A stretch of DNA of 64,000 bases from assembly GCF_003334405.1 (NCBI RefSeq), contig NZ_QOWM01000004.1. One strand, written 5' to 3'. Shown here piece after piece: positions 21,767-55,069 of the stretch; position 1 is the stretch's first letter; each line of letters opens with the position of its first letter. The stretch is from Escherichia coli. Lineage in GTDB: Bacteria; Pseudomonadota; Gammaproteobacteria; Enterobacterales; Enterobacteriaceae. The notes beneath the pieces were generated by a model. That model was given only the letters and a program-made list of their open reading frames with translations. It had not been told where the DNA came from and did no database searches. A program made the translations under genes and the position numbers.

Positions 21767-23624
21767 TGAACTTGATGCCGGTAATGTGCTGGCGGTTGAA
21801 AATCTGAATATTGCCTTTATGCAGGACCAGCAGAAAATAGCTGCGGTCCGCAATCTCTCTTTTAGTCTGCAACGCGGTGAGACGCTGGCAATTGTTGGCG
21901 AATCCGGCTCCGGTAAGTCAGTGACTGCGTTGGCATTGATGCGCCTGTTGGAACAGGCGGGCGGTTTAGTACAGTGCGATAAAATGCTGTTGCAGCGGCG
22001 CAGTCGCGAAGTGATTGAACTTAGCGAGCAGAACGCTGCACAAATGCGCCATGTTCGCGGTGCGGATATGGCGATGATATTTCAGGAGCCGATGACATCG
22101 CTGAACCCGGTATTTACTGTGGGTGAACAGATTGCCGAATCAATTCGTCTGCATCAGAACGCCAGTCGTGAAGAAGCGATGGTCGAGGCGAAGCGGATGC
22201 TGGATCAGGTACGCATTCCTGAGGCACAAACCATTCTTTCACGTTATCCGCATCAACTCTCTGGCGGGATGCGCCAGCGAGTGATGATTGCGATGGCGCT
22301 GTCATGCCGCCCGGCGGTGCTGATTGCCGATGAGCCAACCACCGCGCTGGATGTCACTATTCAGGCGCAGATCCTGCAATTAATCAAAGTATTGCAAAAA
22401 GAGATGTCGATGGGCGTTATCTTTATCACTCACGATATGGGCGTGGTGGCAGAGATTGCCGATCGGGTACTGGTGATGTATCAGGGCGAGGCGGTGGAAA
22501 CGGGTACCGTCGAACAGATTTTTCATGCACCGCAACATCCTTACACCCGTGCGCTGTTAGCTGCTGTTCCGCAACTTGGTGCGATGAAAGGGTTAGATTA
22601 TCCCCGACGTTTCCCGTTGATATCGCTTGAACATCCAGCGAAACAGGCCCCCCCCATCGAGCAGAAAACGGTGGTGGATGGCGAACCTGTTTTACGAGTG
22701 CGTAATCTTGTCACCCGTTTCCCTTTGCGCAGCGGTTTGTTGAATCGCGTAACGCGGGAAGTGCATGCCGTTGAGAAAGTCAGTTTTGATCTCTGGCCTG
22801 GCGAAACGCTATCGCTGGTGGGCGAGTCTGGCAGCGGTAAATCCACTACCGGGCGGGCGTTGCTGCGCCTGGTCGAATCGCAGGGCGGCGAAATTATCTT
22901 TAACGGTCAGCGAATCGATACCTTGTCACCCGGCAAACTTCAGGCATTACGCCGGGATATTCAGTTTATTTTTCAGGACCCTTACGCTTCGCTGGACCCA
23001 CGTCAGACCATCGGTGATTCGATTATCGAACCGCTGCGTGTACACGGTTTATTGCCAGGTAAAGACGCGGCTGCACGCGTTGCGTGGTTGCTGGAGCGCG
23101 TGGGCCTGTTACCTGAACATGCCTGGCGTTACCCGCATGAGTTTTCCGGCGGTCAGCGCCAGCGCATCTGCATTGCTCGCGCGTTGGCATTGAATCCAAA
23201 AGTGATCATTGCCGACGAAGCCGTTTCGGCGCTGGATGTTTCTATTCGCGGGCAGATTATCAACTTGTTGCTCGATCTCCAGCGTGATTTCGGCATTGCG
23301 TATCTGTTTATCTCCCACGATATGGCGGTGGTAGAGCGGATTAGTCATCGTGTGGCGGTGATGTATCTCGGGCAAATTGTTGAAATTGGTCCACGGCGCG
23401 CGGTCTTCGAAAACCCGCAGCATCCTTATACGCGTAAATTACTGGCGGCAGTTCCGGTCGCTGAACCGTCCCGACAACGACCGCAGCGTGTACTGCTGTC
23501 GGACGATCTTCCCAGCAATATTCATCTGCGTGGCGAAGAGGTGGCAGCCGTCTCGTTGCAATGCGTCGGGCCGGGGCATTACGTCGCACAACCACAATCA
23601 GAATACGCATTCATGCGTAGATAA
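21753..23624 (+). CDS. gsiA: Glutathione ABC importer ATP-binding protein GsiA (two fused ABC domains)
   Basis: Known N-terminus (M)[17 protein letters not shown] read from the in-frame TTG at 21753, inside track ORF 21645..23624; two Walker A motifs; overlaps the iaaA 3' end by 14 nt. Confidence 0.88.
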
Positions 23625-23643
23625 CATTCAGGCGGAGAATAAA

Positions 23644-25182
23644 ATGGCAAGAGCTGTACACCGTAGTGGGTTAGTGGCGCTGGGCATTGCGACAGCGTTG
23701 ATGGCATCTTGTGCATTCGCTGCCAAAGATGTGGTGGTGGCGGTAGGATCGAATTTCACCACGCTCGATCCGTATGACGCAAATGACACGTTATCTCAGG
23801 CCGTAGCGAAATCGTTTTACCAGGGGCTGTTCGGTCTGGATAAAGAGATGAAACTGAAAAACGTGCTGGCGGAGAGTTATACCGTTTCCGATGACGGCAT
23901 TACTTACACCGTGAAATTGCGGGAAGGCATTAAATTCCAGGATGGCACCGATTTCAACGCCGCGGCGGTGAAAGCGAATCTGGACCGGGCCAGCGATCCG
24001 GCGAATCATCTTAAACGCTATAACCTGTATAAGAATATTGCTAAAACGGAAGCGATCGATCCGACAACGGTAAAGATTACCCTCAAACAGCCGTTCTCAG
24101 CGTTTATTAATATTCTTGCCCATCCGGCGACCGCGATGATTTCACCGGCAGCGCTGGAAAAATATGGCAAGGAGATTGGTTTTTATCCGGTGGGAACCGG
24201 ACCGTATGAACTGGATACCTGGAATCAGACCGATTTTGTGAAGGTGAAAAAATTCGCGGGTTACTGGCAGCCAGGATTGCCCAAACTGGACAGCATAACC
24301 TGGCGTCCGGTGGCGGATAACAACACCCGCGCGGCAATGCTGCAAACCGGTGAAGCGCAGTTTGCTTTCCCCATTCCTTACGAGCAGGCCACACTGCTGG
24401 AGAAAAACAAAAATATCGAGTTGATGGCCAGTCCGTCAATTATGCAGCGTTATATCAGTATGAACGTGACGCAAAAGCCGTTCGATAACCCGAAGGTCCG
24501 TGAGGCGCTGAATTACGCCATTAACCGTCCGGCGCTGGTGAAAGTTGCCTTTGCGGGCTATGCAACGCCAGCTACTGGTGTGGTACCGCCAAGTATCGCC
24601 TACGCGCAAAGTTATAAACCGTGGCCTTACGATCCAGTGAAAGCGCGCGAATTACTGAAAGAGGCGGGATATCCCAACGGTTTCAGTACCACGCTGTGGT
24701 CGTCACATAACCACAGCACCGCGCAGAAAGTGCTGCAATTTACCCAGCAGCAGTTAGCGCAGGTCGGGATTAAAGCCCAGGTGACTGCGATGGATGCCGG
24801 ACAGCGGGCGGCAGAAGTTGAAGGTAAAGGGCAAAAAGAGAGCGGCGTGCGGATGTTCTACACTGGCTGGTCGGCTTCAACCGGCGAAGCGGACTGGGCA
24901 CTATCGCCGCTGTTTGCCTCGCAGAACTGGCCACCGACGCTGTTTAATACCGCGTTTTACAGCAATAAACAGGTGGATGACTTCCTGGCTCAGGCACTGA
25001 AAACTAATGATCCGGCGGAAAAGACCCGCTTATATAAGGCGGCGCAGGATATCATCTGGCAAGAATCGCCGTGGATCCCGCTGGTGGTAGAAAAACTGGT
25101 GTCGGCACACAGTAAAAACCTGACCGGTTTTTGGATCATGCCAGACACCGGCTTCAGCTTTGAAGACGCGGATTTGCAATAA
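23644..25182 (+). CDS. gsiB: Periplasmic glutathione-binding protein GsiB
   Basis: ATG at 23644 gives [26 protein letters not shown] signal peptide, 512 aa; track ORF 23377..25182 is extended upstream. Confidence 0.93.
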
Positions 25183-25199
25183 GCAACGCAGGGAGTGGA

Positions 25200-26120
25200 A
25201 TGCTTAATTACGTTATCAAACGCTTACTGGGGTTGATTCCGACGCTGTTTATCGTCTCGGTGCTGGTGTTTTTATTTGTCCATATGCTGCCCGGCGATCC
25301 GGCGCGATTGATTGCCGGGCCCGAAGCTGATGCGCAGGTTATAGAACTGGTGCGTCAGCAGCTGGGGTTGGATCAGCCGCTGTATCACCAGTTCTGGCAC
25401 TATATCAGCAATGCTGTGCAGGGGGATTTTGGCCTGTCGATGGTGTCGCGTCGTCCGGTTGCCGATGAGATTGCCAGCCGCTTTATGCCAACGCTGTGGC
25501 TGACCATAACCAGTATGGTCTGGGCGGTTATATTTGGTATGGCGGCGGGAATTATCGCCGCCGTCTGGCGTAACCGTTGGCCGGATCGATTGAGTATGAC
25601 CATTGCGGTGTCGGGGATCTCGTTTCCGGCATTTGCTCTGGGGATGCTTTTAATTCAGGTATTCTCCGTTGAACTGGGCTGGCTGCCTACCGTGGGAGCA
25701 GACAGTTGGCAGCACTACATTTTACCCTCCCTGACGCTCGGCGCGGCAGTGGCCGCCGTGATGGCGCGCTTTACCCGCGCGTCGTTTGTCGATGTTTTAA
25801 GCGAAGATTATATGCGTACCGCGAGGGCGAAAGGGGTGAGCGAAACCTGGGTTGTCCTCAAACACGGGCTACGTAACGCGATGATCCCGGTAGTGACCAT
25901 GATGGGCTTACAGTTTGGCTTTTTGCTCGGTGGTTCCATCGTTGTGGAGAAAGTTTTCAACTGGCCGGGACTTGGACGCTTACTCGTTGACTCCGTAGAA
26001 ATGCGTGATTACCCGGTGATTCAGGCGGAAATTCTGCTTTTCTCGCTGGAATTTATTCTTATCAACTTAGTGGTGGATGTGCTTTACGCCGCCATTAACC
26101 CGGCTATCAGGTACAAGTAA
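25200..26120 (+). CDS. gsiC: Glutathione ABC importer permease GsiC
   Basis: ORF track 25200..26120, 306 aa, DppB/OppB-type permease. Confidence 0.93.
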
Positions 26121-26122
26121 GG

Positions 26123-27034
26123 ATGCGACTATTTAACTGGCGACGTCAGGCGGTGTTAAACGCCATGCCACTGGTCAAACCTGACCAGGTACGTACACCG
26201 TGGCATGAATTCTGGCGACGATTTCGCCGTCAGCATATGGCGATGACCGCCGCATTATTCGTTATTTTATTGATTGTGGTGGCCATTTTTGCACGCTGGA
26301 TCGCTCCCTATGACGCCGAAAATTATTTTGATTATGACAATCTGAATAACGGACCTTCTTTGCAGCACTGGTTTGGCGTCGATTCACTGGGGCGTGACAT
26401 TTTCAGCCGTGTCCTGGTTGGTGCGCAAATCTCGCTGGCGGCGGGCGTGTTTGCCGTGTTTATCGGTGCGGCGATCGGGACGTTGCTGGGCTTGCTCGCT
26501 GGATATTATGAAGGCTGGTGGGATCGGCTGATCATGCGCATTTGCGATGTGCTGTTTGCCTTCCCGGGTATTTTACTGGCGATCGCTGTTGTTGCGGTGT
26601 TGGGAAGCGGCATTGCTAACGTGATTATTGCAGTCGCCATTTTTTCCATCCCCGCGTTTGCCCGCCTGGTGCGCGGCAACACGCTGGTGTTGAAACAGCA
26701 AACCTTTATTGAGTCAGCACGCAGTATTGGTGCCAGCGATATGACCGTTTTGTTGCGTCATATCCTGCCTGGGACCGTCTCTTCTATCGTGGTGTTTTTC
26801 ACCATGCGCATTGGTACCTCGATTATCTCTGCCGCCAGCCTCTCATTTCTCGGCCTCGGTGCGCAGCCGCCGACACCAGAGTGGGGAGCAATGCTCAATG
26901 AGGCTCGAGCGGATATGGTTATCGCGCCGCATGTCGCTGTTTTTCCGGCCCTGGCTATTTTTCTGACCGTACTGGCGTTCAATTTGTTGGGCGATGGTTT
27001 ACGCGATGCGCTGGATCCGAAAATTAAAGGATAG
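26123..27034 (+). CDS. gsiD: Glutathione ABC importer permease GsiD
   Basis: ORF track 26123..27034, 303 aa, DppC/OppC-type permease. Confidence 0.93.
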
Positions 27035-27211
27035 TTACGTTTGAATATTGCTTGAAAGGGTAATCACCTCACAGGAAATTATTGCCCTAAGCAAGTGTTG
27101 TAACTTTCTGCTGATTTTGTAGAATCGGGTAATTTGGTTAAAAAGCCGCAGCAAGGGACAATTTTTGCAGCGGCACAGCGTTCAGATAGTTATTTTGTTA
27201 AATGTATTAAC

Positions 27212-29560
27212 ATGCTGAGTTTATACGAAAAGATAAAGATAAGGCTGATAATTTTATTTTTATTGGCAGCACTGTCATTTATTGGTCTTTTTTTCATCAT
27301 TAACTATCAACTGGTATCGGAGCGCGCGGTAAAACGTGCCGATAGCCGCTTTGAACTTATTCAGAAAAACGTTGGCTATTTCTTTAAAGATATTGAACGT
27401 TCGGCCCTGACATTAAAGGACTCACTGTATTTATTAAAAAATACAGAGGAGATTCAACGCGCCGTGATTCTTAAAATGGAAATGATGCCATTTTTAGACT
27501 CGGTGGGACTGGTACTTGATGATAATAAATATTATCTTTTTTCGCGGAGGGCGAATGATAAAATCGTTGTTTATCATCAGGAACAAGTAAATGGACCGCT
27601 TGTCGACGAGTCAGGGCGGGTTATTTTTGCCGATTTTAACCCATCGAAACGACCGTGGTCGGTGGCTTCAGATGACTCTAACAACAGCTGGAATCCGGCA
27701 TACAATTGCTTTGATCGTCCGGGTAAAAAATGTATCTCTTTTACGCTACACATCAACGGCAAAGATCACGATTTGTTAGCGGTGGATAAAATTCATGTCG
27801 ATTTAAACTGGCGATATCTGAACGAGTATCTTGATCAAATCAGCGCTAATGATGAAGTTCTATTTTTGAAACAAGGCCATGAGATCATTGCCAAGAATCA
27901 ACTCGCTCGTGAAAAACTGATTATTTATAATAGCGAAGGTAATTATAATATTATTGATTCTGTCGATACTGAATATATCGAAAAAACATCAGCGGTGCCA
28001 AACAACGCATTATTCGAAATCTATTTTTATTATCCTGGCGGTAATTTATTGAACGCATCAGATAAACTTTTTTATCTGCCGTTTGCGTTCATTATTATCG
28101 TATTGCTGGTGGTTTATTTAATGACCACTCGTGTGTTCCGTCGGCAATTTTCTGAAATGACAGAGCTGGTTAATACGCTGGCGTTTTTGCCTGACTCAAC
28201 GGATCAAATCGAGGCTCTGAAAATTCGTGAAGGCGATGCGAAAGAGATTATCAGCATCAAAAATTCGATCGCGGAAATGAAAGATGCCGAAATTGAACGG
28301 TCAAATAAATTGCTCTCACTGATCTCTTACGATCAGGAAAGTGGTTTTATTAAAAATATGGCGATTATTGAGTCTAACAATAATCAGTATCTGGCTGTGG
28401 GGATCATCAAACTGTGTGGTCTGGAAGCCGTGGAAGCGGTGTTTGGTGTTGATGAGCGCAATAAAATCGTCAGGAAATTGTGTCAGCGAATTGCCGAGAA
28501 ATATGCGCAATGCTGCGATATCGTGACATTCAATGCCGATCTCTATTTACTTCTGTGTCGGGAAAATGTACAGACATTTACCCGTAAAATAGCGATGGTA
28601 AACGATTTTGACAGCAGCTTTGGCTACCGCAATCTGCGCATCCATAAGTCTGCCATTTGTGAACCTTTGCAGGGGGAAAACGCCTGGAGTTACGCAGAAA
28701 AACTGAAACTGGCGATTTCCAGTATCCGTGACCATATGTTCTCAGAGTTTATTTTCTGTGATGACGCGAAACTCAACGAAATAGAAGAGAATATCTGGAT
28801 TGCGCGTAATATTCGCCATGCAATGGAAATTGGCGAACTATTCCTCGTCTATCAACCGATCGTTGATATTAACACCCGCGCCATTCTGGGCGCGGAGGCG
28901 TTGTGCCGTTGGGTGTCTGCGGAGCGGGGGATCATTTCACCGCTGAAGTTCATTACCATTGCTGAAGATATCGGGTTTATCAATGAGCTGGGTTATCAGA
29001 TTATTAAAACGGCAATGGGTGAATTCAGACATTTTAGTCAGCGTGCGTCGCTGAAGGATGATTTCTTACTGCATATTAATGTTTCGCCCTGGCAGTTAAA
29101 CGAACCACACTTTCATGAGCGTTTTACCACCATCATGAAAGAAAATGGCCTGAAGGCGAACAGCCTCTGTGTTGAGATCACTGAAACCGTGATCGAGCGA
29201 ATTAATGAACATTTTTATCTCAATATTGAACAACTGCGTAAACAAGGGGTACGGATATCGATTGATGACTTTGGCACCGGTTTGTCAAACCTGAAACGTT
29301 TTTATGAAATTAATCCAGACAGCATAAAGGTGGACTCGCAATTCACCGGCGATATTTTCGGTACTGCGGGAAAAATTGTGCGCATTATTTTCGACCTGGC
29401 ACGCTATAACCGGATCCCGGTGATTGCGGAAGGCGTAGAGAGCGAAGACGTTGCGCGCGAATTAATCAAATTAGGATGTGTTCAGGCTCAGGGGTATCTG
29501 TACCAGAAACCCATGCCATTCTCCGCCTGGGATAAAAGTGGAAAATTAGTAAAAGAGTAG
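27212..29560 (+). CDS. pdeI: Membrane-anchored c-di-GMP phosphodiesterase PdeI (YliE), EAL domain with N-terminal periplasmic sensor region
   Basis: ATG at 27212 ([21 protein letters not shown]); EAL signature in ...[20 protein letters not shown]...; AT-rich coding sequence; track ORF 27134..29560. Confidence 0.88.
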
Positions 29561-29567
29561 TTTACGT

Positions 29568-30896
29568 ATGTCCAGAATCAATAAGTTCGTACTTACAGTC
29601 AGTCTGCTGATTTTTATCATGATTTCAGCAGTTGCCTGCGGGATCTACACTCAAATGGTAAAGGAACGGGTGTATAGCCTGAAACAGTCCGTTATTGATA
29701 CTGCTTTTGCGGTGGCAAATATTGCTGAATATCGGCGTAGCGTGGCAATTGATCTTATCAACACGCTAAATCCCACGGAGGAACAGCTGTTGGTTGGTTT
29801 GCGCACAGCTTACGCCGACTCGGTTTCCCCCTCTTATTTGTACGATGTCGGTCCTTATCTGATTTCCAGTGACGAATGTATTCAGGTAAAGGAGTTCGAG
29901 AAAAATTATTGTGCAGATATTATGCAGGTTGTGAAGTATCGACATGTCAAAAATACAGGGTTTATCTCTTTTGACGGTAAAACCTTCGTCTATTACCTCT
30001 ATCCGGTAACTCACAATCGTAGTCTGATATTTTTGCTTGGTCTGGAGCGTTTTTCTTTACTGTCAAAATCGCTGGCGATGGACAGCGAGAACCTGATGTT
30101 CTCTCTATTTAAGAACGGTAAACCGGTGACCGGTGATGAATATAATGCTAAAAACGCCATCTTCACCGTTTCGGAAGCGATGGAGCACTTCGCCTATTTG
30201 CCGACCGGATTGTATGTATTTGCGTATAAAAAAGATGTTTATTTGCGGGTTTGTACATTGATTATTTTCTTTGCCGCATTGGTGGCAGTGATATCGGGTG
30301 CCAGTTGCCTCTATCTGGTACGCAGAGTGATTAATCGTGGTATTGTGGAGAAAGAAGCCATCATTAATAACCATTTTGAACGCGTACTGGATGGCGGGCT
30401 TTTCTTTTCGGCTGCCGATGTCAAAAAACTCTACAGTATGTATAACTCGGCGTTCCTGGACGACCTGACCAAAGCAATGGGCAGAAAATCCTTTGACGAA
30501 GATTTAAAAGCGCTGCCGGAAAAAGGCGGTTATTTGTGCCTGTTTGACGTCGATAAATTCAAAAACATTAACGACACCTTCGGTCATTTGCTGGGCGATG
30601 AAGTGTTGATGAAAGTGGTGAAAATCCTTAAATCACAGATCCCGGTAGATAAAGGTAAAGTCTACCGCTTCGGCGGTGACGAATTTGCGGTGATTTATAC
30701 GGGTGGAACGCTGGAAGAGTTGCTATCGATTCTAAAAGAAATCGTTCATTTCCAGGTGGGAAGCATTAATTTAAGTACCAGTATCGGTGTAGCACATTCA
30801 AATGAATGTCCTACCGTCGAACGCTTGAAAATGCTGGCGGATGAGCGGCTGTATAAGAGTAAGAAAAACGGCAGGGCACAGATTAGCTGGCAGTAA
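29568..30896 (+). CDS. dgcI: Membrane-anchored diguanylate cyclase DgcI (YliF), GGDEF domain
   Basis: ORF track 29568..30896, 442 aa; intact GGDEF motif in ...[15 protein letters not shown]...; 7 nt downstream of pdeI. Confidence 0.9.
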
Positions 30897-30905
30897 TCAT
30901 TATTC

Positions 30906-30937
30906 GCAGGCCGGACAAATGATTTTGCCCGGCCTGA
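30906..30937. terminator. Stem-loop between convergent dgcI and rimO (candidate bidirectional terminator)
   Basis: AGGCCGGACAAATGATTTTGCCCGGCCT inverted repeat between the two stop codons. Confidence 0.5.
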
Positions 30938-30942
30938 ATTAA

Positions 30943-32268
30943 TTAAACCCGGCTACCCCACAAATCGTACTCATCGGCGTGCTCGACTTTCACACGCAGG
31001 ATATCACCCGGCTTAACGTTGGTTTCACCATTGAGATAAACCGCGCCGTCGATTTCCGGTGCATCTGCCATGCTGCGACCAATCGCGCCTTCTTCGTCCA
31101 CTTCGTCGATAATCACCAGAATTTCACGGCCCACTTTCTCTTGCAGGCGCTCGGCGGAAATCTGCTGCTGCAGCTGCATGAAACGGTTCCAGCGTTCTTC
31201 TTTAACTTCTTCCGGAACCTGGTCAGGCAGGGCATTGGCGTCTGCACCTTCAACCGGGCTGTATTTAAAGCAGCCAACGCGATCCAGACGCGCTTCTTTC
31301 AGGAAGTCGAGTAGCATCTGGAAATCTTCTTCTGTCTCGCCAGGGAAGCCGACAATAAAGGTTGAGCGTAGGGTCAGTTCCGGGCAGATTTCGCGCCACT
31401 GTTTGATGCGCGCCAGTTGGCGATCTACAGAACCCGGACGCTTCATCAGTTTGAGAATGCGCGGGCTGGCGTGCTGCAACGGAATGTCCAGATACGGCAG
31501 GATTTTGCCTTCTGCCATCAGTGGGATGACGTCGTCCACATGCGGATAAGGGTAAACGTAGTGCAGACGTGTCCAGATCCCCAGTTTCGATAACTGTTCG
31601 CACAGGCTGACCATGCTGGTTTTTACCGGCTCGCCGTTGTGGAAGCCAGTACGATGTTTAACATCAACGCCATAGGCGGAAGTATCCTGCGAGATCACCA
31701 GAATCTCTTTAACGCCCGCATCTACCAGACGTTTCGCTTCACTTAACACTTCGCCAATCGGACGGCTCACCAGGTCGCCGCGCATAGACGGAATAATGCA
31801 GAAGGTGCAGCGGTGATTACAGCCTTCAGAAATTTTCAGATAGGCATAATGACGCGGCGTCAGTTTCACACCTTGTTCTGGCACCAGGCTCAGGAATGGG
31901 TTGTGTTTCGGTTTTGGCACGTAGTGATGAACGTGCTCCAGAACCTGCTCATAGCTATGAGGCCCGGTGATTTCCAGCACTTTCGGGTGGACTTCGCGGA
32001 TCTGATCTTCTTTTGCCCCCAGACAACCGGTCACAATAACCTTGCCGTTTTCATTCAACGCTTCACCAATGGCTTCCAGTGATTCTTGTACCGCGCTGTC
32101 AATAAAGCCGCAGGTGTTGACGATCACCATGTCCGCATCGTCATAGCTCGGTACCACGTCATAACCTTCAGTGCGGAGTTCGGTGAGAATACGCTCTGAA
32201 TCAACAAGGTTTTTCGGACAGCCAAGGGAAACAAAGCCGATTTTCGGCTGGGGAGTTACTTTGCTCAT
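30943..32268 (-). CDS. rimO: Ribosomal protein S12 methylthiotransferase RimO (radical SAM)
   Basis: ORF track 30943..32268 (-), 441 aa; radical-SAM CxxxCxxC (CNHRCTFC) and C-terminal TRAM-like region. Confidence 0.95.
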
Positions 32269-32480
32269 AGCTTAAAAAATATTCAGTTACAGGAAAGGTC
32301 AGGGCAGGGATTCTACAGAGTTCTGGATAAAATTTGTATCGCAATCTCATTCGCTGGCGGAGGCGAAGGAAATGTAAATTTTGTTAATTCGGCGTGAAGA
32401 ATTGATCCTGGACAGCATTTTGCTCAAAAAATAGCCATACTATTTAATTGCAACAAGGCTGGGAAGAGGAGGATCGAAGT

Positions 32481-32864
32481 ATGTTCGTTGACAGACAGCG
32501 AATCGATCTGCTGAACCGGTTGATCGACGCACGCGTTGACCTCGCCGCATACGTGCAACTGAGGAAGGCAAAAGGATACATGTCCGTCAGCGAAAGCAAT
32601 CATCTACGAGATAACTTTTTTAAACTGAATCGCGAACTGCACGATAAATCGCTGCGGTTGAATCTTCATCTGGATCAGGAAGAGTGGAGTGCTCTTCATC
32701 ATGCTGAAGAAGCATTAGCGACAGCCGCAGTATGTTTGATGAGTGGGCACCATGATTGCCCGACTGTTATTACCGTCAACGCCGATAAGCTTGAAAATTG
32801 TCTGATGAGCTTAACGCTGAGTATCCAGAGCCTGCAGAAGCACGCCATGCTTGAGAAGGCCTGA
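32481..32864 (+). CDS. bssR: Biofilm regulator BssR
   Basis: Known N-terminus MFVDRQRIDLLNRLIDARVDL at the ATG at 32481, 127 aa; track ORF 32448..32864 begins upstream. Confidence 0.88.
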   Translation: MFVDRQRIDLLNRLIDARVDLAAYVQLRKAKGYMSVSESNHLRDNFFKLNRELHDKSLRLNLHLDQEEWSALHHAEEALATAAVCLMSGHHDCPTVITVNADKLENCLMSLTLSIQSLQKHAMLEKA

Positions 32865-32867
32865 AAA

Positions 32868-32910
32868 CTAAGGGGGAGAAAGCGTCTCCCCCTTCATGTT
32901 TAAGTTTTTG
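32868..32910 (+). terminator. Rho-independent terminator after bssR
   Basis: AAGGGGGAGA-AAGCG-TCTCCCCCTT hairpin followed by a T-rich run (CATGTTTAAGTTTTT). Confidence 0.65.
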
Positions 32911-32974
32911 TAAAAATGAATTTGTTATCTCCTCCACTGACTACGCTTTAAGCCAGAGTCAATCCGGAGGCGTT

Positions 32975-34090
32975 ATGCATCGACAATCCTTTTTCCTTGT
33001 GCCCCTTATTTGTCTTTCTTCCGCTCTCTGGGCGGCTCCTGCAACGGTAAATGTCGAAGTACTGCAAGACAAACTCGACCATCCCTGGGCACTGGCCTTT
33101 TTACCCGATAATCACGGTATGTTAATCACTCTGCGCGGCGGCGAGTTGCGTCACTGGCAAGCAGGAAAAGGATTATCTGCGCCGCTTTCCGGAGTTCCGG
33201 ACGTTTGGGCGCACGGGCAGGGCGGCCTGCTGGACGTGGTTTTAGCGCCTGATTTTGCTCAGTCTCGCCGCATCTGGTTAAGTTATTCCGAAGTTGGCGA
33301 TGATGGCAAAGCCGGAACTGCTGTGGGTTATGGCCGCTTAAGTGATGATCTCTCAAAAGTGACCGACTTCCGCACCGTCTTTCGCCAGATGCCAAAACTG
33401 TCTACCGGCAACCATTTTGGCGGGCGGCTGGTATTCGACGGTAAAGGTTATCTTTTTATTGCTCTGGGCGAAAACAATCAGCGCCCGACGGCGCAGGATC
33501 TGGATAAATTACAGGGCAAACTGGTGCGTCTGACCGACCAGGGCGAAATCCCGGATGATAATCCTTTTATAAAGGAATCCGGTGCGCGCGCCGAGATCTG
33601 GTCTTATGGCATTCGTAATCCGCAAGGAATGGCGATGAATCCGTGGAGTAATGCACTGTGGCTGAATGAACATGGCCCGCGCGGTGGTGATGAAATTAAT
33701 ATCCCGCAAAAAGGCAAAAACTACGGCTGGCCGCTGGCAACCTGGGGAATCAACTATTCAGGCTTTAAGATACCGGAAGCGAAAGGGGAGATCGTCGCCG
33801 GGACCGAGCAACCTGTTTTTTACTGGAAAGATTCGCCCGCTGTGAGCGGCATGGCCTTCTATAACAGCGATAAATTCCCCCAGTGGCAGCAAAAATTATT
33901 TATTGGCGCGCTGAAAGATAAAGATGTCATTGTGATGAGCGTCAACGGCGACAAAGTGACAGAAGATGGCCGTATTTTAACGGACAGAGGGCAGCGAATT
34001 CGTGATGTTCGCACTGGACCCGACGGTTATTTATACGTTCTCACCGACGAGTCCAGTGGGGAATTACTTAAAGTTAGCCCACGCAATTAG
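32975..34090 (+). CDS. yliI: Soluble aldose sugar dehydrogenase YliI (PQQ-dependent beta-propeller)
   Basis: ORF track 32975..34090, 371 aa, signal peptide [23 protein letters not shown]. Confidence 0.9.
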
Positions 34091-46199: not shown

Positions 46200-47102
46200 G
46201 TGAAAATTGCCATATTGTCCCGGGATGGAACGCTCTATTCGTGTAAGCGGCTGCGTGAAGCCGCTATACAGCGCGGTCACCTGGTTGAAATTCTTGATCC
46301 GCTTTCTTGCTACATGAACATAAATCCTGCGGCGTCTTCTATTCACTACAAAGGCCGCAAGTTACCCCATTTTGACGCAGTGATCCCGCGTATTGGCACC
46401 GCCATTACCTTTTATGGGACGGCGGCACTGCGCCAGTTCGAGATGCTGGGGAGCTATCCGCTCAATGAGTCGGTCGCCATTGCCCGGGCGCGTGACAAAT
46501 TGCGTTCCATGCAACTGCTGGCGCGTCAGGGCATCGACCTGCCTGTCACGGGCATTGCGCATTCGCCGGATGATACCAGCGATTTAATCGACATGGTCGG
46601 TGGTGCGCCGCTGGTGGTCAAGTTGGTTGAAGGCACGCAGGGAATTGGCGTCGTGCTGGCGGAGACGCGTCAGGCGGCGGAAAGCGTGATTGACGCTTTC
46701 CGCGGTCTGAACGCGCATATTCTGGTGCAGGAATATATCAAAGAGGCGCAAGGGTGCGATATCCGCTGTCTGGTTGTTGGCGATGAAGTGGTCGCTGCGA
46801 TTGAACGGCGGGCGAAAGAGGGCGATTTTCGTTCCAATTTGCATCGTGGCGGCGCGGCAAGCGTCGCCAGTATCACACCACAGGAGCGTGAAATCGCGAT
46901 AAAAGCCGCGCGAACGATGGCGCTGGACGTTGCTGGTGTGGATATTCTGCGTGCTAATCGCGGGCCGTTGGTGATGGAGGTGAATGCGTCGCCGGGGCTG
47001 GAAGGAATAGAAAAAACCACCGGTATCGACATCGCGGGTAAAATGATCCGCTGGATCGAACGCCACGCTACGACAGAATATTGCCTGAAAACGGGTGGTT
47101 AG
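46200..47102 (+). CDS. rimK: Ribosomal protein S6 glutamate ligase RimK (ATP-grasp)
   Basis: ORF track 46200..47102, 300 aa, (M)[26 protein letters not shown]...; GTG start. Confidence 0.93.
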
Positions 47103-47189
47103 TCGCAATCACATTACTGATCATGGTTTTGCCTGCGCTTTTTGCGTAAGCTGTGCCGGTCTTTTTATCGAAAGAGGTTGTACAAAATT

Positions 47190-47666
47190 ATGACATCGCT
47201 GGTCGTTCCTGGTCTGGATACGCTGCGTCAATGGCTCGATGACCTGGGGATGAGTTTTTTTGAATGTGATAACTGTCAGGCTCTGCATCTGCCCCATATG
47301 CAGAATTTCGACGGTGTCTTTGATGCCAAAATCGATCTGATCGATAACACGATCCTGTTTTCTGCCATGGCGGAAGTCCGACCTTCAGCCGTATTGCCGC
47401 TGGCGGCGGATTTATCTGCCATCAATGCCAGTTCGCTGACCGTGAAAGCATTTCTTGATATGCAGGATGATAATCTGCCAAAGCTGGTGGTTTGCCAGTC
47501 TTTATCCGTTATGCAGGGCGTAACCTATGAGCAGTTTGCATGGTTCGTGCGTCAGAGCGAAGAGCAGATTTCGATGGTCATTCTTGAAGCTAATGCCCAT
47601 CAACTGCTGTTACCGACTGATGATGAAGGGCAAAACAACGTTACCGAAAACTATTTCCTCCACTGA
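47190..47666 (+). CDS. ybjN: Uncharacterised protein YbjN
   Basis: Known N-terminus MTSLVVPGLDTLRQWLDDLGMSFFECDNC at the ATG at 47190, 158 aa; track ORF 47142..47666. Confidence 0.88.
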   Translation: MTSLVVPGLDTLRQWLDDLGMSFFECDNCQALHLPHMQNFDGVFDAKIDLIDNTILFSAMAEVRPSAVLPLAADLSAINASSLTVKAFLDMQDDNLPKLVVCQSLSVMQGVTYEQFAWFVRQSEEQISMVILEANAHQLLLPTDDEGQNNVTENYFLH

Positions 47667-48016
47667 TAACTCCTTTCGAGCACGCAGTCGCTGGTGCAGT
47701 GGCTGCGCGCTGCAAAATTATCTGCTGTTTTTAACCTTTTCTTAAAGATTATTTCACTTCTCTTGTGTCGATTTGGCTTTATCACATAGAGCAAATATGC
47801 ATAAAAATTTGTTAAATACCGTTTTTTAATCCGAGCTATAGTCTCAAACCCTGGCTAAAGTTATTCTTGCGATGCTTTTATATAGCGAGCAGTGCTGGCC
47901 GGGAGAAAGTTCTCTTTTCTTACACCGCGCCGATAAAAAATATGCACGTTTATTGCATATCTTTCAGTGTGACAACTTTTGTTCGTTTGTTAACGAACTT
48001 TCAGAAGGAAAGAGAT

Positions 48017-49129
48017 ATGACCGCCTTAAATAAAAAATGGCTATCGGGTCTGGTTGCGGGTGCTCTGATGGCCGTCTCTGTCGGCACGCTCGCGGCTGAA
48101 CAAAAAACACTCCACATTTATAACTGGTCTGATTATATCGCCCCGGACACGGTGGCCAATTTTGAAAAAGAAACCGGTATTAAAGTCGTCTACGATGTTT
48201 TCGACTCTAACGAAGTACTGGAAGGCAAATTAATGGCCGGGAGTACCGGCTTTGATCTGGTGGTTCCATCTGCCAGCTTTCTGGAGCGCCAGTTGACTGC
48301 GGGAGTTTTCCAGCCGCTGGACAAAAGCAAATTGCCGGAGTGGAAGAATCTCGACCCGGAACTGCTGAAGCTGGTCGCCAAACACGATCCCGACAATAAA
48401 TTTGCTATGCCCTATATGTGGGCGACGACCGGGATTGGCTATAACGTTGATAAAGTTAAAGCGGTGCTGGGCGAAAACGCGCCCGTCGATAGCTGGGACT
48501 TGATCCTCAAACCTGAAAATCTGGAAAAACTGAAAAGCTGCGGTGTCTCTTTCCTGGATGCGCCAGAAGAAGTTTTTGCTACCGTGTTGAATTATCTCGG
48601 CAAAGATCCCAACAGCACTAAAGCGGATGATTACACCGGACCGGCAACAGATCTGCTGTTAAAGCTGCGCCCGAACATTCGTTATTTCCATTCATCTCAA
48701 TACATTAACGACCTGGCAAACGGCGATATTTGCGTCGCTATCGGCTGGGCAGGTGATGTCTGGCAGGCGTCAAACCGCGCGAAGGAAGCGAAGAATGGCG
48801 TGAATGTCTCGTTCTCGATTCCAAAAGAAGGGGCGATGGCGTTCTTTGATGTATTCGCCATGCCTGCGGATGCCAAAAACAAAGACGAAGCCTATCAGTT
48901 CCTGAATTACCTGCTGCGCCCGGATGTAGTAGCGCATATTTCCGACCATGTGTTCTATGCCAACGCCAATAAAGCAGCCACGCCGCTGGTGAGTGCGGAA
49001 GTCCGTGAGAACCCAGGTATTTATCCGCCTGCGGATGTTCGTGCGAAGCTGTTCACTCTGAAAGTGCAGGATCCGAAAATCGACCGTGTGCGCACCCGCG
49101 CGTGGACCAAAGTGAAGAGCGGAAAATAA
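48017..49129 (+). CDS. potF: Periplasmic putrescine-binding protein PotF
   Basis: ATG at 48017 gives MTALNKKWLSGLVAGALMAVSVGTLA signal peptide, 370 aa; track ORF 47867..49129 is extended upstream. Confidence 0.93.
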   Translation: MTALNKKWLSGLVAGALMAVSVGTLAAEQKTLHIYNWSDYIAPDTVANFEKETGIKVVYDVFDSNEVLEGKLMAGSTGFDLVVPSASFLERQLTAGVFQPLDKSKLPEWKNLDPELLKLVAKHDPDNKFAMPYMWATTGIGYNVDKVKAVLGENAPVDSWDLILKPENLEKLKSCGVSFLDAPEEVFATVLNYLGKDPNSTKADDYTGPATDLLLKLRPNIRYFHSSQYINDLANGDICVAIGWAGDVWQASNRAKEAKNGVNVSFSIPKEGAMAFFDVFAMPADAKNKDEAYQFLNYLLRPDVVAHISDHVFYANANKAATPLVSAEVRENPGIYPPADVRAKLFTLKVQDPKIDRVRTRAWTKVKSGK

Positions 49130-53927: not shown

Positions 53928-54027
<100 letters not shown>

Positions 54028-54076
54028 ATTTTACCTTTGTCATCAGTCTCAAGCCGCGGTTGCGGCTTTCTGAATC

Positions 54077-54808
54077 TTACTGTGGGAACCACTGGTCACT
54101 GATTTTTTGATAAGTACCGTCAGCTTTAATTGCTGCCAGCGCGTTATTCAGTTTTTCCAGCAGGGCTTTGTTATCCGGACGTACAGCGATGCCCAGGCCG
54201 GTGCCAAAATATTGCGGATCGGTCACTTTCTCAGTAGCAACACCAAGTTGTGGATTGGTTTTCAGCCATTCGTTTACCACCGCTGTGTCACCAAATACCC
54301 CATCAATACGACCATTTTTCAGATCGATAAAGGCATTCTGATAACTGTCATAAGAGACAGTTTTCACTTCCGGGTGCTGATCCTGAATATATTTCTGGTG
54401 CGTAGTACCGTTTTCCATCCCAATACGTTTGCCTTTCAGATCGGCAAACGTTTTGTAGGTATCTTTTTTGGCAATCACGACGGCTGAGTTTTCATAGTAG
54501 GGCGTGGTAAACGATACCTGTTTGCTACGCTCCGGGGTGATATCCATACCGGAGATTACGGCGTCATATTTTCTGAATTTCAGGGACGGGATCAGGCTGT
54601 CGAACGCGTGATTAGTAAAAGTACATTCTGCCTGCATTTGTTTGCACAAGGCTTTTGCCAGATCGATATCAAAGCCGACAATCTCATTATTAGCACCTAT
54701 AGATTCAAAGGGTGGATAGGTGGCTGAAACGCCAAAATTGATTTTCTCTGCGGCAGAAGCACCGAAAGTAAAGGAAGCAAGTAAAGCGGCAAGAACTAAC
54801 TTTTTCAT
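54077..54808 (-). CDS. artJ: Periplasmic arginine-binding protein ArtJ
   Basis: Known N-terminus MKKLVLAALLASFTFGASA at the ATG at 54806-54808, 243 aa; track ORF 54077..54859. Confidence 0.93.
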   Translation of the reverse strand: MKKLVLAALLASFTFGASAAEKINFGVSATYPPFESIGANNEIVGFDIDLAKALCKQMQAECTFTNHAFDSLIPSLKFRKYDAVISGMDITPERSKQVSFTTPYYENSAVVIAKKDTYKTFADLKGKRIGMENGTTHQKYIQDQHPEVKTVSYDSYQNAFIDLKNGRIDGVFGDTAVVNEWLKTNPQLGVATEKVTDPQYFGTGLGIAVRPDNKALLEKLNNALAAIKADGTYQKISDQWFPQ

Positions 54809-54921
54809 GATGGAACTCCCGTCTGTCAATCTTATGATTTTTGGCCGTGTCTGCGGCATGGGATAACAATGCCATCAAGTGAATTTATATGCAATAAACA
54901 TGATTAAATAATTTAAATGAA

Positions 54922-54957
54922 ATAAAAAAGACGGACAACTTAGTGGGTTGTCCGTCT
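54922..54957 (-). terminator. Rho-independent terminator at the end of the artPIQM transcript
   Basis: Minus strand: GACGGACAAC-CCACTAA-GTTGTCCGTC followed by TTTTTTATT. Confidence 0.7.
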
Positions 54958-54980
54958 TCATTATAAGAATTTATGCACTA

Positions 54981-55069
54981 TGTAGGCCGGATAAGGCGTC
55001 CCCGCCGCATCCGGCACAGGCACCGTGCTGATGTCTGATGCGACGCTGGCGCGTCTTATCAGACCTACA
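54981..55069. repeat. REP/BIME cluster downstream of artM
   Basis: TGTAGGCCGGATAAGGCGTCCCCGCCGCATCCGGCA and GATGCGACGCTGGCGCGTCTTATCAGACCTACA REP units. Confidence 0.8.

Follow-up and report, generated by a model that had tools for sequence, protein, structure and literature searches.

The pdeI–dgcI locus of Escherichia coli: an old AT-rich insertion with a probable c-di-GMP phosphodiesterase and cyclase operon

An AT-rich block of the Escherichia coli chromosome carries, side by side, a gene for an EAL protein and a gene for a GGDEF protein, and this raises the question of where such a pair came from, whether it is transcribed as one unit, and whether its two products really push c-di-GMP in opposite ways. 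The best explanation as a whole, to which we give a probability of about 0.8, is that the block is an old AT-rich insertion holding an operon, in which PdeI would act as a phosphodiesterase and DgcI as a cyclase, each with a separate periplasmic input. The block (27212-30896 of the window, the window being the whole 64-kb stretch of DNA analysed) is the known E. coli K-12 pdeI–dgcI (yliE-yliF) locus. The window agrees with MG1655 868000-879767 without a single mismatch over 11,768 nt, and the matching genes are annotated there as pdeI (b0833) and dgcI (b0834). All 5426 complete E. coli genomes searched carry the region, and in 5381 of them at least 80% of it is covered. It is real and ordinary, the names of its domains (CHASE9, GAPES2, EAL and GGDEF) exist already in Pfam and RefSeq, and the field's view of c-di-GMP signalling is unchanged by it; what is added here is context only, namely the empty sites, a conserved candidate promoter, the fold assignments and the cysteine pairs.

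Both genes lie on the plus strand. The first, pdeI (27212..29560), encodes 782 aa comprising TM1, a periplasmic sensor, TM2, a linker, a degenerate GGDEF domain and an EAL domain; the second, dgcI (29568..30896), encodes 442 aa comprising TM1, the GAPES2 periplasmic sensor, TM2 and a GGDEF cyclase domain devoid of the RxxD I-site. The spacing of 7 nt on one strand that had been reported in the initial annotation is exact, as pdeI ends at 29560 and the junction (TTTACGT, 29561..29567) runs directly into the dgcI start. An AAGAG Shine-Dalgarno-like run is situated within the 3' end of pdeI (29553-29557). In the list of open reading frames, a TTG at 27134 opens a frame of 808 aa; translation from the annotated start codon, an ATG at 27212, yields PdeI with its 782 aa.

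The same annotation had judged the block by eye to be more AT-rich than its neighbours, and the sliding-window calculation bears this out. The GC content of the block is 42.3% (pdeI 41.6%, dgcI 43.5%), against 53.2% in the left flank, 51.2% in the right flank and 51.1% in the whole window. Across all windows of 3685 nt, the mean is 51.0% with an SD of 2.5%, placing the block about 3.4 SD under the mean and making it the GC minimum for its length within the 64 kb; only 0.6% of windows are as GC-poor, and every one of them overlaps the block. The reduction affects all three codon positions (0.49/0.31/0.45 in pdeI vs 0.58/0.39/0.63 in gsiC), and the transitions, at ~27000-27100 and ~30900, are sharp.

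N-terminal membrane and periplasmic segments had been claimed for both proteins, and hydropathy does place two membrane segments in each. In PdeI, these are residues 12-30 and 286-304, with a periplasmic stretch of about 255 aa between. The domain prediction that had been proposed for the periplasmic regions now gives a family for both sensors. For PdeI, it is CHASE9 (PF17153, residues 35-150, 27314..27661; E 2e-62, model 1-116 of 116). PdeI has only two cysteines on the periplasmic side, C166 and C174, both invariant and both within the rest of the periplasmic part (aa 151-285), and the motif NC..PG[KR]KC does not vary between E. coli, E. fergusonii and the plasmid paralog described below. 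The C-terminal EAL domain (PF00563, residues 532-767, 28805..29512; E 2e-69, model 2-236 of 236) keeps all of the catalytic and metal-binding motifs (EALxR, N, ExxE, DDFGTG, KxD, EGVE and QG), with EALCR at 562, DDFGTG at 685, EGVE at 740 and QG at 758. It can be aligned to solved EAL domains, 5yrp included (best E 1e-44), and a published residue table agrees on these motifs (PMC3484386).

Between linker and EAL domain, PdeI contains a further domain (~aa 391-530, 28382..28801), a degenerate GGDEF domain which the initial annotation had missed. It has no Pfam GGDEF match and no sequence match in the PDB, and its alignment to GGDEF by hhalign is not significant (probability 0.3%). According to an AF2 model of moderate confidence (mean pLDDT 59, core 60-86), the GGDEF fold itself is kept; Foldseek matches the domain to the GGDEF domains of DosP, DosC, PleD and WspR with E-values of 1e-5 to 1e-4, a probability of 1.00 and a target-normalised TM-score of 0.55-0.62 at 7-15% identity. 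Judged by its motif, PdeI cannot be a cyclase because TFNADLY (439-445) stands in place of RxGGDEF. G412 is invariant, and K400 and C402 occupy the metal-binding Asp positions, as placed by counting back from G412 taken as the conserved Gly of the canonical GH motif. The published activating mutation G412S maps to this dead domain.

DgcI has its membrane segments at residues 8-26 and ~224-250, with about 197 aa of periplasmic sequence between. The GAPES2 family covers this sensor in full (residues 26-229, 29643..30254; E 2e-143, model 1-204 of 204), has a tandem PDC (double-Cache-like) fold and carries an invariant cysteine pair, C104/C115 (C-x10-C). The GGDEF domain (PF00990, residues 295-437, 30450..30878; E 2e-24) aligns to DosC and DgcZ, and its RFGGDEF signature (367-373) is intact, as it also is in E. 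fergusonii and the plasmid paralog. An RxxD allosteric I-site is common, although not obligatory, in GGDEF cyclases. DgcI has none, reading PVDKGKVY upstream of RFGGDEF, and its I-site is listed as not conserved (PMC3484386). Cyclase activity has been published. Among four cyclases, Shigella DgcI yielded the most c-di-GMP, and changing GG to AA abolished synthesis (PMC11327459); in a biosensor assay, the MG1655 protein shows activity that D371A removes (PMC11757272). Additionally, DgcI has phenotypes that are independent of catalytic activity (PMC11327459, PMC12713406).

Taken together, PdeI would be an inner-membrane sensor phosphodiesterase, in which the periplasmic CHASE9-containing domain signals through TM2 and the linker to the catalytically dead GGDEF-fold domain, which in turn may gate the intact EAL domain. 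DgcI is an inner-membrane cyclase, in which the periplasmic GAPES2 has a double-Cache-like fold, a kind whose usual role is the binding of small ligands, and would drive an intact GGDEF domain lacking a site for product inhibition. Made from one transcript, the two enzymes would each respond to a periplasmic input of its own and shift c-di-GMP in opposite directions. The antagonism proposed in the initial annotation stands on the side of DgcI, a proven cyclase, and is contested on the side of PdeI, which acts like a phosphodiesterase in assays with phage N4 (PMC7553319) and is reported in one paper to raise c-di-GMP (PMC11651652).

Whether a single transcript exists is the part of this explanation that meets the strongest competition. 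The anatomy is that of an operon: the genes share a strand, the gap is short, no terminator intervenes (no hairpin is found at the pdeI/dgcI junction, fold z 0.01), and a terminator-like hairpin follows dgcI. The latter, a GC-rich stem-loop in the gap where dgcI and rimO converge (30907..30936), is a candidate two-way terminator, folding at -20.3 kcal/mol on the plus strand (z -4.1) and -25.0 kcal/mol on the minus strand (z -4.9), and no shuffle folds as well. Upstream of pdeI, the consensus scan returns a candidate sigma-70-like promoter, TTGTAA-16 nt-TAGAAT (27098..27125), whose 9/12 consensus matches are alone not significant; within it, ATTTTGTAGAATC is invariant across four Escherichia lineages while the surrounding spacer diverged. 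A 250-bp fragment upstream of pdeI drives pdeI-bfp expression (PMC11651652). The presumed pdeI 5' leader contains a stem-loop (27145..27174, GCCGCAGCAAGGG...TTTGCAGCGGC; fold z -2.5), and at this position the sequence of the other lineages could also form a hairpin, shifted in register as judged by eye. E. fergusonii has 9 nt between the genes, and E. whittamii and a divergent E. coli lineage have 7 nt each. The whole would form one transcription unit, with a conserved sigma-70-type promoter ~90 nt upstream of pdeI, a terminator-free gap and a terminator after dgcI.

The alternative is that pdeI and dgcI are merely adjacent and independently expressed, dgcI being transcribed from its own promoter within the 3' end of pdeI; adjacency would then be functionally uninformative. 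Binding coordinate 874568, which we take to be in older K-12 numbering, falls at the pdeI/dgcI junction after the addition of ~778 bp. Genomic SELEX, an in vitro method, places weak peaks of the sigma-54 (32% intensity) and sigma-28 (4.3) holoenzymes there (PMC8743547, PMC5493296), and a TGGCAC-N5-TGTCA sequence occurs at 29272-29287. Independent expression would also fit the report that DgcI was one of four undetected proteins and PdeI was not (PMC5635695), and the use of pdeI, not dgcI, as a single-cell marker gene (PMC11651652). However, the 29272 site is devoid of the essential -12 GC, shuffled sequence contains more sigma-54-like matches than the window does (341 +/- 21 vs 287), no sigma-28 -10 element is seen by eye in 29400-29567, and the sigma-70 scan is blank just upstream of dgcI. 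The tight junction is common to four Escherichia lineages, the reading frames overlap in the plasmid paralog, and the two genes respond alike in two transcriptome studies, both being up at 37 C (PMC12890032) and both raised by BolA (PMC5605933). We therefore regard separate expression as unlikely, although it keeps a real share of the probability, and the pair as most likely a two-gene operon on anatomy and co-regulation. The co-transcription suggested in the initial annotation gains from both of these, and the binding peaks leave an internal promoter open. Given the differences in detection, the two products are not obviously stoichiometric.

Expression in the laboratory is very low. DgcI protein is undetectable, and it is toxic if made from the higher-copy two-hybrid vector pTRG (PMC5635695). 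Together with higher expression at 37 C than at 23 C, this fits a silencing of AT-rich foreign DNA without proving it. H-NS may be involved, and the sequence proxies are mixed: AT-rich 12-mers are threefold enriched in the block, whereas the high-affinity H-NS motif is not enriched (7 matches in the block vs 5.3 +/- 2.1 in windows of the same size).

Relatives of the pair suggest what such a unit might serve. Paralogous pairs with 37-40% identity and the same gene order adjoin bcsA-bcsB on E. coli IncHI1B plasmids. On plasmid pS143-2, a PdeI-like gene (37% full-length identity) overlaps a DgcI-like gene (40% full-length) by 23 nt, and bcsA and bcsB follow; a second, decayed plasmid variant has the same order. 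Plasmid YliE-like/YliF-like pairs beside bcsA2-4 cellulose synthase clusters have also been described (bioRxiv 10.1101/2025.05.09.653004). The plasmid pairs resemble the chromosomal one in having both architectures at full length, in the same order, with a tight or overlapping junction, a dead GGDEF domain and the periplasmic Cys pairs. Unlike it, they reside on IncHI1B plasmids, have bcsA-bcsB downstream, are often truncated by IS1, and are more AT-rich still, at 35% GC; no polysaccharide synthase gene adjoins the chromosomal pair. Since paralogous pairs adjoin plasmid bcsA-bcsB, the ancestral pair probably acted locally, controlling a polysaccharide synthase that depends on c-di-GMP, an output worth testing.

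A second known arrangement within E. coli is the dosC-dosP (dgcO-pdeO) operon, whose products form a complex. As in pdeI-dgcI, genes for a cyclase and a phosphodiesterase stand side by side on one strand, and DosP, like PdeI, is a phosphodiesterase with a degenerate GGDEF preceding its EAL domain. By structure, the PdeI middle domain matches DosP best; by sequence, the DgcI GGDEF domain matches DosC best. In contrast, the cyclase gene comes first in dosC-dosP, its products are cytoplasmic haem-based gas sensors rather than periplasmic ones, and it is not known to lie in an AT-rich insertion.

PdeI and DgcI may be physically coupled and inherited together as a unit of two sensors, with PdeI acting on DgcI as well, by way of its dead GGDEF domain or of its membrane and periplasmic parts. 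If true, this would reconcile the reports that PdeI raises c-di-GMP, that it acts as a phosphodiesterase, and that DgcI has catalysis-independent phenotypes. With an invariant Cys pair in the periplasmic part of each sensor, both could share a redox input, and the plasmid paralogs beside bcsA-bcsB would point to a local switch dedicated to a polysaccharide synthase. The evidence consists of co-inheritance in the same gene order, down to ~25-40% identity. The published two-hybrid screen is compatible with coupling, because it used cytoplasmic parts only, without a vector swap for DgcI (PMC5635695). We hold this addition to be unlikely.

The origin of the block is well supported. A 3.9-kb AT-rich segment, running from the gsiD stop to the rimO stop (27035..30942), entered the gsiD-rimO site before Escherichia radiated and has been kept since; it is an old, genus-specific insertion, because the pair is found in four Escherichia lineages and gsiD-rimO is contiguous in Salmonella and Citrobacter. 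In S. enterica, S. bongori and C. amalonaticus, gsiD is followed by the convergent rimO after 87-116 nt, with the pair missing and no remnant. In E. coli, E. fergusonii, E. whittamii and a divergent E. coli lineage, the pair is intact at the same site and equally AT-rich; E. fergusonii reads gsiABCD-pdeI-dgcI-rimO-bssR-yliI, and the three lineages besides the E. coli of the window have frames of 782 and 442 aa, a gap of 7-9 nt and 40-41% GC. Relative to E. fergusonii, dN is 0.21 for pdeI and 0.14 for dgcI, and 0.01-0.08 for gsiC, gsiD and rimO; dS is saturated, and dN/dS is ~0.1 or less where computable. The older horizontal acquisition that had been offered as one reason for the base composition is thus upheld, and the locus represents a textbook-style old, fixed, AT-rich acquisition with a paired cyclase and phosphodiesterase.

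It is very improbable that the pair was instead ancestral to the Enterobacteriaceae, with losses in Salmonella and Citrobacter and a low GC that reflects protein composition or local mutation bias. Such a history would accord with the absence of mobility genes (integrase) or a tRNA site from the ORF list and annotation of the block, and of flanking direct repeats of at least 14 nt at its borders; with a low GC that has come no closer to that of the host since the separation of E. coli from E. fergusonii; and with GC being low also at codon positions 1 and 2. Against it, the clean junction without remnant recurs in three outgroup genomes of two genera, and the GC3 of the pair is 0.45-0.50 vs 0.58-0.63 in neighbouring genes. 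GAPES2 returned only 35 matches, many of them near-identical DgcI fragments, among 1.84 billion representative proteins, none of the 35 being assignable to another genus; Escherichia accounts for 105 of the 106 plasmid records in which a GAPES2 homolog occurs, and the family also circulates on the plasmids of 35% GC.

The least probable reading, and one against which the sequence argues, is the recent claim that PdeI is itself a c-di-GMP synthetase through its divergent GGDEF, making the locus two producers rather than an antagonistic pair: induction of pBAD-pdeI gave 11-fold higher c-di-GMP by HPLC-MS/MS, and PdeI-BFP correlates positively with a c-di-GMP sensor in single cells, a correlation lost in G412S (PMC11651652), but the signature and metal-binding positions are replaced as described, Pfam GGDEF is unmatched with the fold alone retained, the degeneracy must be ancient because the 37%-identical plasmid paralog shares it (INKNKY), the EAL domain has every catalytic motif, overexpressed pdeI blocks phage N4, which needs c-di-GMP, just as five other phosphodiesterases do (PMC7553319, PMC8669469), and G412S has been reported to lower c-di-GMP in a pdeH mutant (Reinders et al. 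2016, as cited in PMC11651652).

CHASE9 and GAPES2 are nearly confined to Escherichia, and the double-Cache-like fold and invariant Cys pairs are starting points for a ligand search. The CSS-domain phosphodiesterases PdeC, PdeB, PdeD, PdeG and PdeN of E. coli are under DsbA-dependent periplasmic disulfide control. PdeI resembles them in its order of TM, periplasmic loop, TM and EAL, and in its two conserved periplasmic cysteines (C166, C174), but differs in having Pfam CHASE9 instead of CSS and an additional GGDEF-fold domain. In DgcI, GAPES2 is the sole periplasmic family reported by Pfam, with no dCache match, and it shares 6-12% identity with the double-Cache (tandem PDC) sensors KinD, PctA, DctB, LuxQ and CqsR. 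At 199 aa, it is shorter than most double-Cache domains (210-280 aa), and its C-x10-C pair is specific to the family.

The AT-richness that the initial annotation had judged by eye in the pdeI-dgcI block (27212-30896) is real. Its computed GC content is 42.3%, against 53.2% in the left flank, 51.2% in the right flank and 51.1% in the window. Compared with every window of its length, it lies about 3.4 standard deviations under the mean, and none in the entire 64 kb is lower. The borders of the block are sharp, and each of the three codon positions has a reduced GC content. Elsewhere, GC falls below 45% only at 2501-3500, 47001-48250 and 54001-55000; these remaining dips are short (about 1 kb), lie near dps with the spacer upstream of it, near ybjN-potF and near artJ, and none is like the 3.9-kb block.

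The window is E. coli K-12 DNA: positions 22233-34000 are identical to MG1655 868000-879767 (0 mismatches in the sequence comparison), where the annotation gives gsiA-D, pdeI (b0833), dgcI (b0834), rimO on the opposite strand, bssR and yliI. The ORF list and the sequence place pdeI at 27212-29560 and dgcI at 29568-30896, both on the plus strand and 7 nt apart. Pfam assigns CHASE9 (aa 35-150) and EAL (aa 532-767) to PdeI, and GAPES2 (aa 26-229) and GGDEF (aa 295-437) to DgcI, CHASE9 and GAPES2 being the domains predicted for the periplasmic regions. By hydropathy, each protein has two hydrophobic segments, and the periplasmic stretch that they bracket is about 255 aa long in PdeI and about 197 aa long in DgcI. 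The anatomy first proposed, that of an EAL and a GGDEF neighbour on one strand, each with membrane and periplasmic segments, is therefore correct. The N-terminus of DgcI (29568-29645, aa 1-26) ends in a lipobox-like AVAC followed by G, and one database entry reads "lipoprotein YliF"; because this cysteine is not conserved in distant paralogs, this stretch is more probably an ordinary first membrane segment than a lipoprotein signal.

An older horizontal acquisition, also suggested initially, is borne out at the syntenic site. In S. enterica, S. bongori and Citrobacter amalonaticus the same neighbourhood is found, with gsiD followed by a spacer of 87-116 nt and then by convergent rimO (6913-7002 in L016, 6913-6999 in L017 and 6913-7028 in L018, these being the Salmonella/Citrobacter loci). 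The order in E. fergusonii is identical to that of E. coli (gsiABCD-pdeI-dgcI-rimO-bssR-yliI), while E. whittamii and a divergent E. coli lineage carry intact ORFs of 782 and 442 aa with 7-nt gaps and 41% GC; the protein search also returns orthologs from E. albertii and E. marmotae. Since gsiD stands directly before rimO in Salmonella and Citrobacter and the pair lies there in Escherichia, the block is a 3.9-kb Escherichia-specific insertion (27035-30942), predating the E. fergusonii split. The empty spacers are GC-rich, palindromic and REP element-like, and share no recognisable common sequence with the Escherichia spacers. No integrase is annotated in the block, no tRNA gene adjoins it in the MG1655 annotation, the repeat search gave no meaningful flanking repeats at its borders, and no donor is visible among the protein and plasmid homologs searched. 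A search of 1.84 billion representative proteins with the GAPES2 sensor returns only 35 matches, many being near-identical DgcI fragments, and 105 of the 106 plasmid records with a GAPES2 homolog are from Escherichia. Scanning whole genomes for loci that match the PdeI sensor alignment confirmed only 3; the patterns used were restrictive and missed E. fergusonii and E. albertii, which makes the scan unfit as a census.

Within E. coli, the region is present in all 5426 complete genomes, with at least 80% of it covered in 5381. Coverage is below 80% in the other 45. IS1 lies within pdeI or dgcI in some complete genomes, and in E. coli HCP30S3_I2 it takes the place of the entire pair between gsiD and rimO. 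At one locus (L007, GCA_974496745.1), the entire gsi-pdeI-dgcI-rimO region is split into many short ORFs, a pattern more suggestive of sequencing errors left uncorrected than of biology; this frameshift-ridden assembly was left out of the comparisons.

Between E. coli and E. fergusonii, pdeI and dgcI have diverged far more quickly than the genes beside them: identity is 69.6% for PdeI and 78.3% for DgcI against 87-98% for GsiC, GsiD and RimO, and dN is 0.21 for pdeI and 0.14 for dgcI against 0.01-0.08. Their dN/dS is near or below 0.1, a rough value given saturated dS; selection thus maintains both genes. A drift of GC towards the host value is seen in none of the Escherichia lineages compared. 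One cluster of 1305 distinct DgcI sequences is made up of truncated or partial forms, with lengths of 275-425 aa among the 15 members listed and several of them on long contigs, which suggests that dgcI is recurrently truncated in natural isolates, some cases of which may be assembly or annotation artefacts.

Paralogs of the pair are carried by E. coli IncHI1B plasmids, where a PdeI-like gene (37% identical over the full length) and a DgcI-like gene (40%, full-length) overlap by 23 nt, have a GC content of 35% and are followed by bcsA and bcsB. A second, more distant plasmid variant, with EAL then GAPES2-GGDEF beside bcsAB, is decayed, and in other plasmids the PdeI-like gene has been lost to IS1. 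Both genes have thus travelled jointly, with their order kept, to similar divergence depths, and this joint travel is the best evidence in our analysis that the pair works as a unit. The association with bcsAB was previously described (bioRxiv 10.1101/2025.05.09.653004); it suggests the c-di-GMP-dependent cellulose synthase as the ancestral output. For two distant GAPES2 proteins (P0057, P0066), no neighbours are visible on their contigs of 1.4-1.5 kb. A plasmid-type pair (777 and 452 aa, overlapping, 35% GC) also occurs on a 5.6-kb contig of a "Sporosarcina psychrophila" MAG (L010, DYWT01000146.1), a placement that is almost certainly a binning error.

The co-transcription proposed initially draws its support from anatomy and co-regulation. 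Both genes are higher at 37 C than at 23 C in CFT073 (PMC12890032), and BolA raises both (PMC5605933); together with the anatomy, this shared response fits an operon. A consensus scan places a sigma-70-like promoter candidate of pdeI, TTGTAA-16-TAGAAT, at 27098-27125 on the plus strand, as a match unremarkable. At this candidate, four Escherichia lineages share ATTTTGTAGAATC without any change, although the rest of their spacers differs and that of E. fergusonii has a deletion of 33 nt. A pdeI fusion is expressed from a 250-bp fragment taken upstream of the gene (PMC11651652). Upstream of the candidate, GAAATTATTGC (27075-27085) is nearly invariant in the four lineages, making it a possible site for a regulator, and downstream of it a leader stem-loop (27145-27174, z -2.5) recurs in shifted register in other Escherichia lineages. 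Folding against shuffles gave no RNA structure at the pdeI/dgcI junction (z 0.01), where a purine-rich AAGAG lies 10 nt ahead of the dgcI ATG, and a stable stem-loop between convergent dgcI and rimO (30907-30936, z -4.1 and -4.9 on the two strands). A search of 26000-33000 against Rfam gave no family hit at E <=1.

K-12 position 874568, which we take to belong to an older coordinate version, would with about 778 bp added become MG1655 ~875346, or ~29579 of the window, at the pdeI/dgcI junction. Binding peaks of both sigma-54 and sigma-28 holoenzymes were located at this same coordinate by in-vitro genomic SELEX (PMC8743547, PMC5493296). Sharing one coordinate in AT-rich DNA, they may represent non-specific binding, and as counter-evidence to an operon they are weak. 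A sigma-54 promoter for dgcI was dropped: the window matches fewer such sites than shuffled sequence, no convincing site lies upstream of dgcI, and the best one near the junction (29272-29287) is without the -12 GC. On silencing, the AT-tract proxy for H-NS is positive in the block and the motif proxy negative, the density of the high-affinity motif being not enriched there; H-NS involvement is plausible for DNA of 42% GC with induction at 37 C.

The EAL domain of PdeI has the full set of catalytic motifs. The region between TM2 and EAL gave no sequence match (Pfam, PDB sequences, hhalign), hhalign against GGDEF domains of the DgcI family reaching a probability of 0.3%. Only a structure model and a fold search reveal its predicted GGDEF fold: the model of aa 331-533 has a mean pLDDT of 59 (core 60-86), and the top of the Foldseek list consists entirely of GGDEF domains, E. 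coli DosP first. The architecture given in bioRxiv 10.1101/2025.05.09.653004 agrees. Here TFNADLY stands at the hairpin where GGDEF is expected, and K400 and C402 occupy the metal-binding aspartate positions; G412, the site of a published activating mutation as cited in PMC11651652, is invariant. Degeneracy of the same degree in the plasmid paralog (INKNKY) makes this an old regulatory domain rather than a case of recent decay.

These residues bear on the report that PdeI raises c-di-GMP and is itself a synthetase (PMC11651652). Direct synthesis by such a domain is very unlikely, and in a phage N4 assay pdeI overexpression behaved like that of five other phosphodiesterases (PMC7553319, PMC8669469). 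An indirect rise through a cyclase, most obviously DgcI from the conserved neighbouring gene, would reconcile the data; the two-hybrid screen of PMC5635695 covered cytoplasmic parts only.

DgcI retains RFGGDEF and lacks the RxxD I-site by sequence check. Published work establishes its cyclase activity in both Shigella and MG1655 (PMC11327459, PMC11757272), and some of its phenotypes are independent of that activity (PMC11327459, PMC12713406). The protein is undetectable in K-12 and toxic from the higher-copy two-hybrid vector pTRG (PMC5635695). A missing guanine-binding Asn was dropped as a distinguishing feature, the highly active DgcZ having Gly at the aligned position. We propose that a single transcript would yield PdeI and DgcI as periplasmic sensors with different inputs, driving c-di-GMP in opposite directions, the EAL domain of PdeI being gated by its own dead GGDEF domain. 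The toxicity of DgcI at higher copy and the near-silence of the locus may arise because DgcI is without feedback inhibition.

Earlier work had already described both genes, their domains and the plasmid paralogs; the small additions made here are the empty-site comparison, the conserved promoter candidate, two fold assignments (GGDEF-like for the PdeI middle domain, double-Cache-like for GAPES2) and the cysteine pairs. The two sensors are not duplicates of one, their periplasmic domains being dissimilar (BLASTP E 0.67). Each has exactly two cysteines, C166/C174 in PdeI (27707-27733) and C104/C115 in DgcI (29877-29912), with neither pair varying among paralogs of 23-71% identity. Although Pfam finds no CSS domain in PdeI, these pairs recall the CSS-domain phosphodiesterases, which are under periplasmic disulfide control.
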